A stretch of DNA of 64,000 nt, from contig BQXR01000010.1 in NCBI GenBank assembly GCA_033238645.1, forward strand, positions 6,128 through 70,127. Direction: 5' to 3'. Shown in pieces: positions 43,282 to 50,000 of the stretch. A model generated the notes under the pieces. It was not told the DNA's origin and did no database searches. It was given only the letters and a program-made list of their open reading frames with translations. Each line of letters begins with the position of its first letter. Position 1 is the stretch's first letter. The DNA comes from Thiomicrorhabdus sp. (lineage in GTDB: Bacteria; Pseudomonadota; Gammaproteobacteria; Thiomicrospirales; Thiomicrospiraceae). Position numbers and translations under genes: made by a program.

Positions 43282-44256
43282 TCAATTCCTAGATTTGATT
43301 TTTCTTCTAGGGTAAATAGATGGGATCAGTCGAATATAGAACAACTCCCCAACAAGTTCTACCATTGTTTGAGTAACAATTATGGCGGCCGCTAATATCC
43401 AGCCCTCTGGTAAAGCCAAAGCCAAAGGAAGAACCACCAGTGAATTACGAGTACCTGCACTAAAAAGCAAAGCTCTACCAGCTCCAACGTTCAAGTGAAA
43501 AGCACAAGCCGTTAACTTAGCAAGTAAGGGCATAATTACCATAAAAGCAACATAGACAGGAATAACCAACCAAACCATACTAAGCTCTTCTTCTACTCTA
43601 CCTATTTGAGACGCCACTACAAAAAATAGAACAAAGGCCATTAAGGGAACCGGTAGCCAAGTAATTCCATTAAGCCAAGTTACACCAATTGATTGTTTCT
43701 TAGCCCATAATTCGGTTATAAACGCCAATACTAAAGGCAAAGCAATCAAAAGAAAAAATGCTTCAATGAAGGGAGCTGCACTCATAACGTGTGTAACCAC
43801 ATCCCCCATGAAAAGCCATAGATAAATAGGTAGAAATATAATCTGAGCGATTAATAGTAGAGGAGTTGATGCAAGTAGAAGTTTAGAATCCCCTTTTCCC
43901 ATGTGAGTAAAAACAATAACATAGTCAATACATGGCGTGAGAAGAACAAGGTAGAAGCCGAGAAGTAGCACGGGGTCTTCGGGCAGAAAAAGCGACAATA
44001 ACCATACTAATATTGGAGCAATAATAAAATTAATTGTAAATAAAGCGGCATTAAACCTTATGTTAGAAAATGCTTCTCTCAGTTTTAAGAAAGGAACTAG
44101 AGTAAACATACTATAAAGTAAAGCAGCTAAAATAGGAGAAATTAATACTTCTAAACTTGTACCAATATTTGGGTTCACCAGCCCAATATACAACCCAAAA
44201 CCTAAGCTTAAAGTATAAATCCAGATTTGGTTTTTTTCCAGTTGTCCCCTAGACAT
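43282..44256 (-). CDS. Acr3/bile acid:Na+ symporter-family arsenic resistance protein
   Basis: LEKNQIWIY start, N(F)IIAP, LLTPCIDY and TRNSLVVLPLAL motifs; about 10 TM segments; ars context. Confidence 0.8.
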   Translation of the reverse strand: MSRGQLEKNQIWIYTLSLGFGLYIGLVNPNIGTSLEVLISPILAALLYSMFTLVPFLKLREAFSNIRFNAALFTINFIIAPILVWLLSLFLPEDPVLLLGFYLVLLTPCIDYVIVFTHMGKGDSKLLLASTPLLLIAQIIFLPIYLWLFMGDVVTHVMSAAPFIEAFFLLIALPLVLAFITELWAKKQSIGVTWLNGITWLPVPLMAFVLFFVVASQIGRVEEELSMVWLVIPVYVAFMVIMPLLAKLTACAFHLNVGAGRALLFSAGTRNSLVVLPLALALPEGWILAAAIIVTQTMVELVGELFYIRLIPSIYPRRKIKSRN

Positions 44257-44304: not shown

Positions 44305-44783
44305 CTAAATACTATTTAGACCAATCTCGTCTAACTCTTGTTGTAGTTTAACTCTGCTAAGCTTCTTATGTGGTAACAGAGTAAATAAGTTAATACGAGT
44401 ACTGAGTATTCTAAGTACATCTTTGTATTCTTTTAGGTCGCCATCGTCTGAATGAGGGTCTTCGACACCCCAGTGAGCATTAATAGGTTGTCCAGGCCAA
44501 ATTGGACATTGCTCACCATTAGCTTTGTCACAAACGGTAATAACAAAGTCTATTTTAGAAGCTCCGTCTTTAGCAAACTCATCCCAACTTTTTGGTTCTA
44601 AATCCTCTGGAAGAGCGATTTTGGCATCATTCAACACTTTAATAACACTTGGGTTAACCTCCTCTTTAGGATGGCTTCCTGCACTGTAGGCTTTAAAACA
44701 CCCTTTACCCCAGTGGTTTAAAAGGCTTCGGCCATAATGCTTCTTTTTGAATTCCCAGTGCATAGAAACAATACGTTATACAT
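44305..44783 (-). pseudogene. arsC: Thioredoxin-dependent arsenate reductase (LMW-PTP fold), frameshifted
   Basis: AGGAGG RBS, then ATG 44783 reads MYNVLFLCTGNSKRSIMAEAF and stops at 44720-44718. The rest (LNHW...SAGSHP...TVCD...CPIWPG...HWGVEDP) continues in the -1 frame. Confidence 0.85.
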
Positions 44784-44801
44784 AGCTTTTAACCTCCTAA
44801 G

Positions 44802-45821
44802 TTAAGCATCAAGCTCTTGATTAGCTTTACCTACTTTCATCGTCAACTCCATCATGCGTTGCATATAGCCAATTTCATTGTCGTACCATGCTAAAACTTT
44901 AACGTGAGTATTATTAACTACACGGGTTGATTGAGCATCAATGACTGATGAGCACGTTTCGCCCTCATAATCTACTGACACCAATGGCAATTCCTCATAA
45001 CCCAAGATGTCTTTTAGGTAGGTTTCAGAGGCTTCTTTAAATAGACTATTGACCTCTACTACCGAGGTTGGTCGCTGCATTTCCATGACCAAATCCGTCA
45101 AAGAAGCATTCATAAACGGTACACGAACTGCAATGCCATCCAAGCGCCCGTTTAGCTCTGGAAAGATGGAGCCAATCGCGGTGGCAGAACCAGTTGACGT
45201 TGGAATCAATGATTCAAAGCTTGAACGTGCACGTCGCCAATCTTTATGACCATGATCCACCACTTTTTGGGTATTGGTGCGGTCGTGCATGGTGGTAATT
45301 GAGCCGTGCGAAATCCCGATTTTTTCATGTAACACTTTTATAACAGGAGCAATACAGTTAGTTGTACAAGAGGCAGCTGTAATCAGACAGTCTTCACCAG
45401 CCACAAAAATATCATCATTAATGCCCATGACAATGTTTTTCACGCCTTCTTTAAAGGGGGCGGCGACAATCACTTGTTTAACGCCTTGGTCAAAATAAGG
45501 CTGTACATCTGCACGTGTGCGGAATTTACCGGTGCATTCTAGAACTACATCAATATCAAGCGCACCCCAATCAAAATCCTCTAGAGCATTTCGAGAGCTG
45601 TAACCAATTTGTTTTTCATGAATCACAATCTGACCATTTTCTTCACTCGCTTTATTATGCCAGCGACCATGGGCTGAATCGTAATTTAAAAGATGAGCAG
45701 AACCTGCTGCATCCGTGGCAATTTCATTGATATGCACAAACTCAATGCCTTCCCAGTCAAATGCCTGACGTAAACCTAAACGCCCCATACGCCCAAAACC
45801 ATTTATTGCTACACGAATCAT
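44802..45821 (-). CDS. gap: Arsenic-associated (ArsJ-type) glyceraldehyde-3-phosphate dehydrogenase
   Basis: INGFGRMGRL, ASCTTNC and WYDNE motifs; ars-operon context. Confidence 0.9.
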   Translation of the reverse strand: MIRVAINGFGRMGRLGLRQAFDWEGIEFVHINEIATDAAGSAHLLNYDSAHGRWHNKASEENGQIVIHEKQIGYSSRNALEDFDWGALDIDVVLECTGKFRTRADVQPYFDQGVKQVIVAAPFKEGVKNIVMGINDDIFVAGEDCLITAASCTTNCIAPVIKVLHEKIGISHGSITTMHDRTNTQKVVDHGHKDWRRARSSFESLIPTSTGSATAIGSIFPELNGRLDGIAVRVPFMNASLTDLVMEMQRPTSVVEVNSLFKEASETYLKDILGYEELPLVSVDYEGETCSSVIDAQSTRVVNNTHVKVLAWYDNEIGYMQRMMELTMKVGKANQELDA

Positions 45822-45864: not shown

Positions 45865-45888
45865 TATATACGCATATACGGATTAATC
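45865..45888. promoter_or_regulatory. ArsR-type operator 1 (between gap and arsR)
   Basis: TATATACGCATATACGGATTAATC, an imperfect dyad in the divergent gap/arsR spacer; 21 of 24 bases match the site at 49589. Confidence 0.7.
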
Positions 45889-45926: not shown

Positions 45927-46298
45927 ATGACAAATTTAGATGATTTAAAAGCTTTAGAAGAACACGCTCAATTTCACAAAGCATTTGCCGAACCAGTAAG
46001 GCTCAGAATCTTAGCGTTGCTAAGAACCAGAGAATCACTTTGTGTATGTGATTTAGTATCTGTACTGGAACTTTCACAAAGCACTGTTTCAAGGCATCTT
46101 GCCTATCTTAAAAATCAAGGGATCGTAAACTCGTGGCGTGAGGGAACCTGGATACACTACTCATTGGATAAAAATCATCCCGCTTCTGAGGTTCTTTTGC
46201 CAAGCTTGGCGTTTTTAGGCACGCTAGAGCAGGCAAAAAATGACTGCTTAGCTTTGAAAAGATATGAGAAATCACCCAGGCAGTGTAAAGCTAATTAA
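45927..46298 (+). CDS. arsR: ArsR/SmtB-family metalloregulator
   Basis: RLRIL...LCVCDL...SQSTVSRHLAYLK...REGTWIHYSL. Confidence 0.93.
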   Translation: MTNLDDLKALEEHAQFHKAFAEPVRLRILALLRTRESLCVCDLVSVLELSQSTVSRHLAYLKNQGIVNSWREGTWIHYSLDKNHPASEVLLPSLAFLGTLEQAKNDCLALKRYEKSPRQCKAN

Positions 46299-46523
46299 TT
46301 TTCAAACCTAAAACCCATCTCGGTTTAAAGCCCAAGTTAAAGGCAACGTAGGTACTGGTAAACTCAGCAACCAGTTAGAATTGCCAGCATTGAAAGACTT
46401 CTGCCAAAGGCGGTATTTTTATGGTTAAAATTTATATTCAAGGGAGCTGTCAACCTAACTTCAGTCTCGCTACAAAAGTCATATTTTAAACTCCTAGCAG
46501 TGGTTCTTTGCATCCAAGACTTT

Positions 46524-46900
46524 TTAGACATCTCGTAAACAGCATTTACCTGAAGGATTACATGAACATTTTTTTAGCTTTGTCTGTTTTGTGACATAGT
46601 CTTTTATTTCTGGGCTATCTATATAGTTTTGCTAGGTCACACCAAACAATAGCAAACTTAACGGTCAGGATTTGCAGATATTATTCCAAACATTTGTCTT
46701 AATTGACCATTTTCGTTGACCAAACAATCTCTTGTAAAATAAACCAGCTCGTATTTCGAGTCATCGCAAAAATAAAATTATTTTTCTGATAAACCCAACA
46801 ACTAGGGTTGCTTAGAATACGAAGGAGAGTGGCAACAGGACTGCGACAAACAACAAGATGACATTGATGCTTTCCTTTGATCGTATCTTTAGAGGTACCG
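46524..46900 (-). pseudogene. Decayed zf_CopZ-like Zn/[2Fe-2S] metallochaperone
   Basis: Fragments KHQC..., YFCDDSKYELVYF (46774 onward), VCYC(F)GV (46654-46646, one T lost) and CSCNPSGKCCLRDV* (46568-46524). It carries stops and frameshifts and is absent from the ORF track. Confidence 0.75.
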
Positions 46901-46950
46901 ATTTAGTAAATTCCGATACCTTTAGTTTTTTAACGGATTATTGCTTGCAA

Positions 46951-47886
46951 TCACATTGAAGATTCTAATTTTAAGTAAGTACGATTCAGGTTTTGTTTGT
47001 GCCATGAATCATAGTGCTCAAGGTGTTTGAATTCAAGCCAGTCTTTGTTCTCTGAGACCGCCGTATCCACACCAGCCATATTTTCAGCTTTTTCTTTCAT
47101 GGATTCATTCAGCTTTTTCAAATAGTCACCTGTTTCAGCATCGGCCTGTTTCCAATCAGAAACTTTACCGTGACCAGGTACAATGAACTCGGCTGGTAAT
47201 TGACGCATTAGCTGATAAGCCTCATTCCAGGTTATCGGATTAGACCAAGGGTGAACCCCTAGCATACGATCTAAATAAATGATGTCACCCGTAAACAAGA
47301 CTTTTTGTTTTGGTAGCCATAGAGCACTATCGCCAGGAAAATGAGCATCACCATAGAAATTTAGATGCATTTCAACGCCGCCAATATTCAGTGTATTGGA
47401 TTCTTTTTCCAATACCACGTCTGCGGTTTTCATTTTCACGCCCTTCAAGGCGGGAACTTTTTTGACCAAGCCCTCTACCTCTTGGTTAAACATCGATGAC
47501 TGGATTTTAACACTGCCTTTGTAGGCATAGATTTTTGCACCGTGCTTGGAAAAATAATCATTGCCTAACCAGCGGTGGTCTTGGCTACCGATATTAATCA
47601 CCGCCACAATAGGCTGGTCTTTAATGCCTTTGGCAATGGCCACCAGTTTTTTGGCAGCGGCATCACCCGAACCGGAGTCAACCAGTACCCAACCATCAGC
47701 TGTATCAATAAAACCAATATTATTGTTAAGTCCTAGGTTTTCAGGCGTACGGTCGGTAATTGGTCCGACATAAGCATAAACACCATCAGTCACCTTTTGA
47801 GCTTTGAAGTCCATGGCTTGAGTTGAAAAAGACACAACGGCCAAAGCAGTAGTTGCAACCAGTCCCAAGAAAGTACGTCTTTTCAT
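46951..47886 (-). CDS. Tat-exported metallo-beta-lactamase-fold hydrolase (SoxH-like)
   Basis: MKRRTFLG twin-arginine signal plus VLVDSG, GSQDHRWLGN, AHFPGD, FTGD and VPGHG motifs. Confidence 0.8.
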   Translation of the reverse strand: MKRRTFLGLVATTALAVVSFSTQAMDFKAQKVTDGVYAYVGPITDRTPENLGLNNNIGFIDTADGWVLVDSGSGDAAAKKLVAIAKGIKDQPIVAVINIGSQDHRWLGNDYFSKHGAKIYAYKGSVKIQSSMFNQEVEGLVKKVPALKGVKMKTADVVLEKESNTLNIGGVEMHLNFYGDAHFPGDSALWLPKQKVLFTGDIIYLDRMLGVHPWSNPITWNEAYQLMRQLPAEFIVPGHGKVSDWKQADAETGDYLKKLNESMKEKAENMAGVDTAVSENKDWLEFKHLEHYDSWHKQNLNRTYLKLESSM

Positions 47887-47931: not shown

Positions 47932-48576
47932 TTACGACAACCACTCGATAATCATCTTTTTATTTGGCATTCCGCCTGAATGAACAACTTGATCGTTAAT
48001 GACGATGCCAGGAGTGCTCATAATGCCATAAGCAGCAATCTCAGTAATCTCTTCGATTTTAATGACCTTCACCTCTACCCCAAGTTCTTGAGCAGTAGAC
48101 TCAATCAGCTTCATAGTATTTGTACAGGTTGCACAGCCTGTACCGAGAACTTTAATTTCAAGTGCGCCACTACCATAGTAGCCAGTGGTAGAAGGCGAAT
48201 CTTTACCACCACAACAAGGGGTTTCTTTTTCACTTATTGCTTCGAGTTCTGAACTACAACAGCCATCTTGAGGCTTAATTTCACCAGGCTGAGCAGTCGG
48301 ACTACAACAACTTGTTGTTTCTTTAGCTTGTGCTTTTGGCTTTGTTCCACAAGCACCGCCAGGACAGCATTCACCCGTTTTAGATAGCTTGCCGACCAAT
48401 TCCGCAGGACACCAACCTGTAAAAGTAGCCTGAAACCCCATAAATGCAGGCAAAGTTGCCAACCACAGCCAGTTGAGAGTTAGTAAATTTGTTTGACCTG
48501 AAAAATGTGCCAAACCAATGCCAATCAAAATCATTGCTGTCATTAAACGAATCATTAAATTGTCTTTCATTATCAT
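47932..48576 (-). CDS. DUF2892 membrane domain + Cys-rich linker + small thioredoxin-like (CxxC) fusion
   Basis: Two TM segments ending in FTGWCP, four CC pairs, then IKVLGTGCATC...YGIMSTPGIVIN. The start may be ATG 48570. Confidence 0.8.
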   Translation of the reverse strand: MIMKDNLMIRLMTAMILIGIGLAHFSGQTNLLTLNWLWLATLPAFMGFQATFTGWCPAELVGKLSKTGECCPGGACGTKPKAQAKETTSCCSPTAQPGEIKPQDGCCSSELEAISEKETPCCGGKDSPSTTGYYGSGALEIKVLGTGCATCTNTMKLIESTAQELGVEVKVIKIEEITEIAAYGIMSTPGIVINDQVVHSGGMPNKKMIIEWLS

Positions 48577-48591: not shown

Positions 48592-49554
48592 TTATGAATA
48601 TAAAAAATTAAATAAATAGCCTACTAAGATAAACGCAACAGTTAATACGCCAACAAACACTGCCAATGCTGGCCAACGAATCACTTTACGAAGAATTAAC
48701 AATTCAGGTAATGATAAAGCAGCAATACTCATCATCAAAGCAAGGCTCGTTCCTAGTGGAACACCTTTACCCAGCATCGCTTCGATAAAAGGAATTACAC
48801 CTGTTGCATTTGAATAGAGAGGCACACCGACTACTACTGCCGCTGGTACACTCCACCAGCTAGACGAATCACTTAAATAGGTAGTGACCCAAGCTTCAGG
48901 CACGAACCCGTGAAAAGCAGCACCTAAAGCAATCCCAATGAAAATCCAATACCAGATGCGTTTTACAATGACTTTGACTTCATTCCAAGCAAAATCATGA
49001 CGCTTGGAAAAACTCCCTGTATGAGCTTGCTGTTCTTGTTGCTGACGCATTTTAATATCCCAGACGTAGGACTCTACCCAGCGCTCAGGTTTAAACCATT
49101 CCATAATGATAGAACCAAAATATGCTACTGTGATTCCAGCCAAAACATATAACAAGGCCACTTCCCATCCTAATAGAGTGGCCAAAAGTATTACTGCAAC
49201 CTCATTAATCATAGGGCTGGCGATAAGAAAGGCAAAAGTAATCCCCAAAGGAATTCGTGCTTCAACAAATCCGATAAACAGAGGCACAGAAGAACAAGAG
49301 CAAAAGGGTGTCACGCCGCCTAAAGTAATGGCTAAAGACCTAGCCTGCCATTTTGGGCGACCAGCCACGATTTGGCGAACTCTTTCAGTAGAAATAAACG
49401 CGCGTAACAGTCCCATGACATAAATAATGACGACCAGTAAGAAAAATATCTTTATGGTATCCATTATAAAAAACTGAATGGCCGTGCCTAAGTGGCTCTG
49501 AGAGCTTAACTCTAAAAGATCAAACGCAACCCAATTACCGATTTGCTCAAACAT
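48592..49554 (-). CDS. arsP: ArsP/DUF318-family permease
   Basis: TPFCSCSSVPLF, FLIASPMINE, GVPLYSNA and ALSLPE motifs. Confidence 0.85.
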   Translation of the reverse strand: MFEQIGNWVAFDLLELSSQSHLGTAIQFFIMDTIKIFFLLVVIIYVMGLLRAFISTERVRQIVAGRPKWQARSLAITLGGVTPFCSCSSVPLFIGFVEARIPLGITFAFLIASPMINEVAVILLATLLGWEVALLYVLAGITVAYFGSIIMEWFKPERWVESYVWDIKMRQQQEQQAHTGSFSKRHDFAWNEVKVIVKRIWYWIFIGIALGAAFHGFVPEAWVTTYLSDSSSWWSVPAAVVVGVPLYSNATGVIPFIEAMLGKGVPLGTSLALMMSIAALSLPELLILRKVIRWPALAVFVGVLTVAFILVGYLFNFLYS

Positions 49555-49588
49555 AGATACTCCATGGAAAAATAAGAATTGAAACCAT

Positions 49589-49612
49589 TATATCCGCATA
49601 AGCGGATTAATC
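49589..49612. promoter_or_regulatory. ArsR-type operator 2 (upstream of arsP)
   Basis: TATATCCGCATAAGCGGATTAATC with dyad ATCCGC-N4-GCGGAT, 35 bp upstream of the permease start. Confidence 0.7.
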
Positions 49613-50000
49613 AAAATATTTTTTAGAGTTGTATATAAGAAATGACTTGGATACCGTTCCAAGAATGGATGCTTACTGAAGTAATTGATGGGGAATTTAA
49701 AATCGTAAAAGGTGGTTCTAATAGTACAATAAAACACTGTGAATCTAAACGTTAATACTCAGAGAAGAGGTTTTAGCTTCCTTTGGTAGCTCGAAGTATA
49801 AGAAGAGTCTCCATTGAGTTGGAGAATATCGTTTACAAAACCCGAATTGGCCAGTTAGAGGCGAATAATTAACCTTTGTGTACGAAATGGTGTTGCCATT
49901 CCAGCTATCTTAAACAGCCTGAGCTGCTTATTTTATATTCGTTTTGTACAACCCTATGTATTAAGGCTGTGATTTATATGAGACCTTTTCATCTTTTTAA

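Follow-up and report, generated by a model that had tools for sequence, protein, structure and literature searches.

What would a bacterium do with a single chain that joins a membrane hairpin, a string of cysteine pairs and a thioredoxin-like domain, encoded directly beside an arsenic permease? The question is raised by an open reading frame (ORF) on contig BQXR01000010.1 of Thiomicrorhabdus sp., within the 64,000-nucleotide stretch of DNA analysed here and called the window throughout. The initial annotation had taken the product for a membrane-tethered arsenic chaperone or reductase, which captures As(III) on a cysteine-rich linker and hands it to the adjacent permease. We favour, with moderate confidence, a related reading drawn from comparative sequence analysis, in which the fusion would act as an ArsD-like thiol chaperone or relay, tethered to the membrane and dedicated to the ArsP_1-family permease encoded upstream. 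A tethered arsenic helper for that permease is supported by comparison, through the constant presence of ArsP_1, the ArsD-like motifs, the fusions of related domains to ArsA and ArsR, and an operator-like sequence at the promoter, whereas As(III) need not be the sole substrate.

Every motif first listed for this ORF was found in its translation (TGWCP at residues 53-57, ECCPGGAC at 69-76, SCCS at 89-92, GCCS at 105-108, PCCG at 120-123, GYYG at 132-135 and GTGCATC at 145-151), and the proposed succession of DUF2892 hairpin, Cys-pair linker and CxxC thioredoxin-like domain was borne out by Pfam, NCBIfam and AlphaFold2. The parts are arranged as follows:

47932-48576, minus strand: three-part fusion ORF, 214 residues counted from the first ATG
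48406-48558, minus strand: YgaP/DUF2892-type two-helix membrane hairpin, ending in G-x-C-P (GWCP, residues 54-57), predicted from Pfam, AlphaFold2 and alignment
48349-48369, minus strand: juxtamembrane Cys cluster CCPGGAC (residues 70-76), an ArsD-like CC-x-x-G-x-C motif, from alignment
48163-48405, minus strand: linker (residues 58-138), predicted to be disordered (predicted local distance difference test score, pLDDT, <50) and cytoplasmic, rich in Ser, Gly, Glu, Lys and Thr
48175-48180, minus strand: YY (residues 133-134, TAC TAT) in place of a fifth Cys pair, from alignment and codon comparison
47938-48162, minus strand: MTH895/ArsE-type thioredoxin-fold domain (residues 139-213), from Pfam, NCBIfam, AlphaFold2 and Foldseek

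Translation probably starts at the second ATG, at 48570, which gives 212 residues, because homologues and the database entry P0001 begin with MKDN or MKGN (the third codon) and an AAGGGG Shine-Dalgarno sequence is better spaced for this start. Residue numbers follow the 214-residue version.

The C-terminal domain is the most readily placed of the three. It matches Pfam Thioredoxin_3 (PF13192) at residues 140-213 (E 2.4e-24, 85.6 bits against a cutoff of 24.8) and the NCBIfam model TIGR00412 for the MTH895/ArsE family of thioredoxin-like proteins (84.9 bits against a cutoff of 62). The AlphaFold2 model, built with 64 homologues, predicts a thioredoxin fold at residues 139-213 with pLDDT >90. 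Its closest relative in the Protein Data Bank, by sequence as well as by fold, is MTH895 (1ILO; Foldseek TM-score 0.79 by target, root-mean-square deviation 2.3). The CATC motif occupies residues 148-151 (48124-48135), both of its cysteines are invariant in 64 of 64 homologues, and the domain also carries a cis-Pro motif, TPG (STPG). By score, fold and CxxC this domain is a member of the MTH895/ArsE family; known members, which also go by the name of "redox-active disulfide protein 2", are however stand-alone proteins of about 75-80 residues, to which the fusion adds a hairpin and an arm of about 80 residues with Cys pairs.

The same model places two helices at residues 7-25 and 36-53 and leaves residues 64-135 disordered (pLDDT <50), and a fold search with the full model returned thioredoxins only, with no match to the hairpin or the linker. 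Over residues 8-64 the window protein scores 20.6 bits against Pfam YgaP-like_TM/DUF2892 (PF11127; gathering cutoff 25.3), while the same family is matched at 28.3 bits by a paralogue, at 33-36 bits by relatives with the domains in swapped order and at 28.5 bits by a neighbouring DUF2892-only gene. The window protein shares with the YgaP-like family the two-helix hairpin and its G-x-C-P end, which is here joined to a thioredoxin fold and not to a rhodanese. In YgaP itself the hairpin follows a cytoplasmic rhodanese domain, and both hairpin ends are cytoplasmic.

Relatives of full length are numerous. A word-indexed protein search returned 72 of them, counted as clusters and assigned, where named, to Thiomicrorhabdus, Hydrogenovibrio or Thiomicrospira. 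Among 99 species genomes of the window's family, 78 contain some match and about 45 a full-length copy; Thiomicrorhabdus immobilis (AP024202; L001, genome G049), of the same genus as the window, is among these genomes. Conservation is distributed very unevenly along the chain. Mean identity to the window protein is 64% in the hairpin, 66% in the juxtamembrane segment (residues 58-78) and 64% in the thioredoxin domain, and falls to 18% in the remaining linker. Compared with a homologue that is 80% identical, dN/dS is 0.016 for hairpin and juxtamembrane segment together, 0.064 for the thioredoxin domain and 0.74 for the linker. In the 64-sequence alignment R10, W38, Q49, G54 and C56 of the hairpin are invariant, and H24 and P57 nearly so. 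Judged by these sequence comparisons, the hairpin is constrained much more strongly than a plain anchor would require, and the linker appears to drift almost freely, its Cys pairs excepted.

Those pairs, at residues 70-71, 90-91, 106-107 and 121-122, are far from a chance arrangement: shuffling the 81-residue linker yields at least four CC dipeptides with P ~3e-4, and the linkers of the 64 homologues hold 258 CC runs against 71 single cysteines. The number of pairs per copy ranges from 2 to 7. The juxtamembrane cluster reads CC-x4-C in 46-47 of these homologues, CC-x7-CC in 13 and C-x2-C-x3-C in 4. The GYYG position had been explained as a Cys pair lost through two G-to-A changes, and the homologues agree: columns 133-134 are CC in 70-72% of them, and the explanation holds because the TAC TAT of the window corresponds, codon for codon, to TGC TGT in the closest homologue (80% identical), with the third bases the same. 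Tyr makes up only 0.2% of linker residues elsewhere. The ancestral linker would accordingly have carried five Cys pairs, as inferred from this alignment, of which the window protein has four.

In 39 of 39 distinct loci, from two phyla, an ArsP_1 permease gene lies directly upstream of the fusion on the same strand. These loci comprise the window, family genomes and metagenome contigs, and three Campylobacterota contigs, all with upstream DNA available, and "directly upstream" permits at most one small gene in between (for a DUF2892-only protein or DUF6428). The permease is the invariant partner, since an arsC gene adjoins the fusion in only about 8-10 of the 39 loci. Among family members the permeases are 65-91% identical and the fusions 40-80%. 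The permease of the window has only two cysteines, both in a TPFCSCS motif that is invariant in 18 sequences. The elements of the locus that bear on its control and neighbourhood are:

48592-49554, minus strand: ArsP_1-family permease gene, in the same operon, 15 bp upstream of the fusion (PF03773, 232 bits)
49587-49614, minus strand: best sigma-70-like promoter (TTGATT-16-TATAAT) of the arsP operon, a motif match
49589-49612, minus strand: ArsR-type operator-like 24-bp palindrome overlapping that promoter, a motif match
45865-45888, minus strand: second copy of the operator-like 24-mer (21/24 identical), between arsR and gap, a motif match
45927-46298, plus strand: ArsR/SmtB regulator with an LCVCDL metalloid-sensing motif, the sole arsR of the window, from Pfam and NCBIfam
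46951-47886, minus strand: last gene of the operon, for a SoxH-like protein of metallo-beta-lactamase fold that carries a twin-arginine signal (MKRRTFLG), from profile searches

The setting is that of arsenic resistance, with a divergent ArsR and an ArsJ-type GAPDH (513.8 bits against a cutoff of 450) in the window, and an MFS/ArsJ protein and an LMWP-type ArsC in relatives. The usual operon of the family consists of a divergent arsR, with or without the SoxH-like hydrolase, then arsP, the fusion, an LMWP-type arsC that may be absent, the ArsJ-type GAPDH and an ArsJ-like MFS gene. About a dozen relatives have a homologue of the hydrolase (43-71% identical) upstream or downstream of the arsP-fusion pair. 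In the window the set is divided between two operons, arsP-fusion-hydrolase and gap-arsC-(Acr3-like), each preceded by one copy of the 24-bp palindrome, which matches at exactly two places in the window and nowhere in shuffled sequence.

The association of hairpin, Cys array and thioredoxin domain has also arisen more than once. In one genus of the family (g2) the order is swapped: 12 of 12 genomes encode a Trx_3 domain, a GGCCSGGxC linker, a DUF2892 hairpin and a C-terminal ...KKSCC, for example:

L023:4003-4578: swapped-order fusion, genus g2
L024:4015-4596: swapped-order fusion, genus g2
L026:3854-4525: swapped-order fusion, genus g2

Here too the fusion follows ArsP_1, and the same hydrolase and GAPDH come after it (arsR-arsP-fusion-hydrolase-GAPDH). 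A third group, of >110 clusters at 90% identity from Campylobacterota such as Sulfurovum and Sulfurimonas, has the window's domain order with a more typical DUF2892 hairpin and is found behind ArsP_1 together with ArsC, CcdA and further thioredoxins. In a tree of the thioredoxin domains (78 columns, low resolution, midpoint root) the three hairpin-bearing groups form three separate supported clades, amid stand-alone, soluble Cys-rich and ArsA-fused domains. Such a distribution indicates repeated origin, and repeated origin is good evidence that hairpin, Cys array and Trx_3 work together.

In alignment the C-terminal ...KKSCC of the swapped forms falls on the beginning of the juxtamembrane motif, a hint of permutation. 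A circular permutation by tandem duplication was considered as the origin of the swapped form and rejected, as the tree places the swapped forms in a different supported clade, among stand-alone and ArsA-fused domains.

The swapped form also informs the topology. Its Trx_3 domain starts at residue 1 with no signal peptide, so this domain and the Cys linker behind it should be cytoplasmic. Because the hairpin brings the chain back to the same side, the arm and thioredoxin domain of the window protein would be cytoplasmic too. The charge pattern agrees with cytoplasmic ends: K4 and R10 precede helix 1, no charged residue falls in the loop between the helices, and helix 2 is followed by lysines.

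A second copy of the architecture exists in the window's genome (G000:C7:74478-75146, plus strand, corresponding to L022:6482-7201). This 239-residue protein, 38-41% identical, has six Cys pairs and a C-terminal CCGSCS and has lost both the thioredoxin CxxC (KVLGADKEKS) and the cis-Pro motif. Its gene lies outside any ars context, flanked by a transglycosylase-like gene and a Ser/Thr kinase gene. Relatives of this paralogue, P0156 with the CxxC lost and P0153 with it kept, indicate a conserved subfamily.

A close parallel is ArsD, an As(III) chaperone (PMC6205960). ArsD sequences, in a sample of the class, carry LCCSTGVCG near the N terminus and tails such as GGCCSGGSCC, and these CC-x-x-G-x-C motifs resemble the GECCPGGACG of the window protein and the GGCCSGGSCS of the swapped forms. 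Both kinds of protein combine a thioredoxin-type fold with vicinal Cys pairs and are encoded beside an arsenic exporter, the one that ArsD serves. The differences are equally clear. ArsD, for instance that of E. coli R773, is soluble, with about 120 residues, whereas the window fusion is membrane-tethered; the CC-x4-C of ArsD, an As(III)-binding site made of Cys12, Cys13 and Cys18, lies inside its fold, where the window protein has CxxC and carries its CC-x-x-G-x-C in the juxtamembrane linker; and ArsD delivers to the ArsA ATPase, whereas the neighbour of the fusion is a secondary permease. Pfam ArsD (PF06953) reaches 26-27 bits on the swapped-order relatives (cutoff 27), the best match, of 27.2 bits, covering ArsD positions 55-123, which are the second half of the fold and the Cys tail. 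On the window protein this model found no match even at E up to 5. With no such match and with CxxC in the fold, the window protein is ArsD-like in its working at most and not a member of the family.

Vicinal pairs had initially been credited with As(III) binding in both ArsD and ArsA. The attribution holds for ArsD and fails for ArsA, whose site is formed by three distant cysteines (113, 172 and 422). A link to ArsA does exist at the level of domain fusions: ArsA ATPases (P0145, P0142, P0144 and P0147) carry at their N terminus thioredoxin domains that share 55-57% identity with the swapped-form domains, and another Trx_3 domain is fused to the C terminus of an ArsR (P0243). In one further sequence (P0184) the end of an ArsP_1 seems to be joined directly to a Trx_3 domain, and this carries little weight because it is a single truncated metagenome fragment. 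In one protein of 1741 residues from the representative library (P0158), the thioredoxin portion of the profile matches at 12 separate places.

These observations can be combined into a mechanism for a tethered chaperone or relay. When a trivalent arsenical appears, ArsR would leave the operator that overlaps the arsP promoter, and permease and fusion would be made. The two-helix hairpin would anchor the fusion in the inner membrane with both ends cytoplasmic, and it probably packs against the permease, because its conservation far exceeds the needs of a mere anchor. The four vicinal pairs on the disordered arm of about 80 residues would bind trivalent arsenicals: As(III), or more likely also methylarsenite-type species, which need two thiols only. 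By ligand exchange the cargo could then pass from the arm to the CC-x4-C cluster and Cys56 at the membrane surface, on to the CSC motif of the permease and out of the cell. The CxxC thioredoxin head may serve as first acceptor, like the equivalent site in ArsD, or may keep the arm thiols reduced.

The relay of the mercury system (MerP, MerT, NmerA and the C-terminal CC pair of MerA) follows the same logic, in which a toxic soft metal changes hands between Cys pairs borne by flexible segments and by a membrane protein, and exchange of Hg between such pairs is established there. The two systems differ in that they share no homology, that the mer relay runs in the opposite direction (import to a reductase) and that it is under MerR and not ArsR control.

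As to the cargo, vicinal pairs bind MAs(III) and trivalent organoarsenicals in ArsI and in MAs(III)-selective ArsR proteins (PMC6514093), and ArsP of C. jejuni is an exporter of MAs(III) and Rox(III) that does not export As(III) (PMC6205960). The two-thiol sites of ArsI and ArsR and the substrates of ArsP together suggest that a two-thiol arm would suit organoarsenicals no less well than arsenite, and that As(III) would fit the three-Cys cluster. By this analogy the substrate may be methylarsenite-type compounds instead of, or besides, inorganic As(III). In four relatives with the operon, no Acr3 scored above cutoff and no ArsB was found, in an ArsB search that also missed its E. coli control, so that this result is soft; if it is true, ArsP_1 would be the sole candidate exit for As(III) made by ArsC there.

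A bolder version, which we regard as a tentative possibility, would make the fusion the first metallochaperone for a secondary (non-ATPase) arsenic exporter. It would act as a "fishing line" beside ArsP that feeds the CSC site via the membrane-surface Cys cluster, with the thioredoxin head resetting the thiols and the hairpin as a docking or gating subunit. Its cargo would then include the methylated or thiolated arsenicals common in sulfidic vents.

Several points weigh against a chaperone or relay for ArsP_1. What the cargo is, and that it is bound and transferred, is inferred throughout from motifs and gene order, the window protein falls below the Pfam cutoff for the hairpin family, and the ArsB negative just described is soft. 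ArsD is known to serve an ATPase, ArsA, and not a secondary permease, and the window's genome has no ArsD and no true ArsA, with only weak partial P-loop matches to the latter (best 41 bits). The C-terminal vicinal pairs of ArsD are dispensable for its chaperone activity, so the Cys-pair arm need not be a transfer path. Since the number of pairs varies so widely and one pair has been lost without obvious harm, buffering fits as well as relay. Finally, decay of the island, seen in a frameshift in its arsC, makes the present use of the fusion in this strain uncertain.

We consider it unlikely that the fusion is instead a dedicated redox protein, whose CxxC head would feed electrons to the LMWP-type ArsC or to a CcdA/thioredoxin envelope relay and whose Cys pairs would pass on electrons or disulfides. 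[quoted passage not shown] The unbroken conservation of the CxxC would suit it, as would the CcdA and extra thioredoxins at Campylobacterota loci and the ArsC that directly follows the fusion in several relatives with its thioredoxin-type Cys trio retained. Yet it is ArsP_1 and not ArsC that adjoins the fusion at all loci; in the swapped-order operons and in the window the fusion persists with no functional ArsC beside it; and the paralogue subfamily dispenses with CxxC and keeps the hairpin and six Cys pairs. A redox role would also leave the membrane tether and the ArsD-like motifs unexplained.

A similarly small share of probability goes to a fusion-permease pair that handles another thiophilic cargo, be it Hg(II), Cu(I), Cd/Zn, Sb(III), or sulfur and arsenic-sulfur species such as thioarsenicals and persulfides. 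Among curated models, those nearest to the permease describe metal exporters (SaoE and the SO_0444 Cu/Zn exporter), each matched far below cutoff. The related SaoE/SaoT pairing has been discussed, and the CC/CU motifs of the SAO system read as heavy-metal ligands (10.1101/2022.07.06.499078). A sulfur connection is suggested by the typical fusion of DUF2892 to rhodanese (P0151), by the twin-arginine-exported SoxH-like hydrolase in the same operon, by rhodanese, TauE and SoxA genes nearby in Sulfurovum, and by the carriers found, all of them sulfur oxidisers (Thiomicrospiraceae, Sulfurovum and Sulfurimonas). Set against this, the conserved partners are arsenic-specific (ArsR with a CVC motif, ArsJ-type GAPDH, ArsJ-like MFS and ArsC), the ArsD-like motifs and the ArsA and ArsR fusions of the Trx_3 clade point to arsenic, and mercury has its own complete merR-T-P-A operon next door in the window, under its own MerR regulator.

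Less probable again is an ArsE-type enzyme, which would reduce pentavalent or nitro-aromatic arsenicals at the membrane and leave export of the trivalent product to ArsP. ArsE of Shewanella putrefaciens reportedly acts with ArsF and ArsG on roxarsone and nitarsone (Chen, Zhang and Rosen, 2019, Environ Sci Technol). The family name under which NCBIfam places the domain, MTH895/ArsE, speaks for this proposal, as does a preprint in which a PF13192 protein next to ArsP is named "organoarsenical resistance protein ArsE" (10.1101/2022.10.17.512643). However, no ArsF-like partner was found in these operons, a thioredoxin fold of some 75 residues carries no cofactor for nitro reduction, and the CxxC-less paralogue argues for an arm with a function of its own.

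That the frame merely joins a DUF2892 protein and a small thioredoxin, separate ORFs merged by sequencing or assembly error, is in practice refuted by the recurrence of the same unbroken frame in dozens of independent genomes (about 45) and in many metagenomes and by strong purifying selection on hairpin and thioredoxin domain across the junction, even though stand-alone DUF2892-CC genes adjoin some fusions and a split form occurs naturally. The latter, L011 (G034:C68:4533-5192), either a gene split by nature or a pseudogene, has an in-frame TAA in the linker, which leaves a 115-residue hairpin-plus-Cys protein and a 77-residue thioredoxin.

Part of this picture was already known. NCBI already applies an automatic name to these proteins, taken from the thioredoxin domain, many members are recognised by Pfam for both domains, and small Trx_3 proteins beside ArsP-type permeases in ars operons are in the literature (PMC2963123; 10.1101/2022.10.17.512643). 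Our literature search found no paper on DUF2892 with arsenic and none on the three-part membrane-tethered form, and in the accessible literature we found no demonstrated mechanism for MTH895/ArsE members. Among arsenic exporters, the ArsP-type permeases belong to the most widespread, and in many phyla they are adjoined by small "ArsE" thioredoxin-like proteins. The fusion physically links such a domain to the membrane and to an ArsD-like Cys array, and its occurrence in two orders and its origin in at least three lineages make a strong comparative case for joint action of thioredoxin-like partner, Cys-pair arrays and DUF2892 hairpin at the permease. It may offer a compact model for how a secondary transporter receives a thiol-bound toxic metalloid, for the function of DUF2892 and for the recurrence of vicinal Cys pairs around ArsP, with relevance to arsenic handling in sulfide-oxidising vent bacteria.

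Several neighbouring genes of the island deserve mention. The LMWP-type arsC of the window (44305-44763, minus strand) is frameshifted within 44700-44800: MYNVLFLCTGNSKRSIMAEA, with the P-loop catalytic Cys, is read in one frame and followed by a stop, and the remainder (...LLNHWGKG... to the end) runs in another frame. The listed ORF of 152 residues consequently has no catalytic cysteine. Two other LMWPc genes are present elsewhere in the window's genome. In the arsC of Thiomicrorhabdus immobilis (L001:6694-7164) the relatives' LFLCTGNSxRS reads LFIDTENATRS, with Asp for the catalytic Cys and the two distal Cys retained. Between arsR and the hydrolase gene (46300-46950) no intact ORF was found on either strand, only short Cys-containing fragments, and one of these, containing KKCSCNPSGKCC, is possibly the relic of a gene.

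At the end of the gap-arsC operon, a transporter gene (43282-44256, minus strand) occupies the position where relatives carry the ArsJ-like MFS gene. Its product scores 35.6 bits against the acr3 model (cutoff 282.8) and 52.7 bits against SBF, and by these profile scores it is an SBF-family protein and not a bona fide Acr3. The ArsJ-type GAPDH of the window (44802-45821, minus strand) is 89% identical to a copy from genus g2 (L023:5634-6653) and only 70-82% identical to the other family members compared, with 74% for same-genus Thiomicrorhabdus. ArsP_1 shows the opposite pattern (83% against 45%), and on these opposed identities the two ars operons of the window seem to be of different origin.

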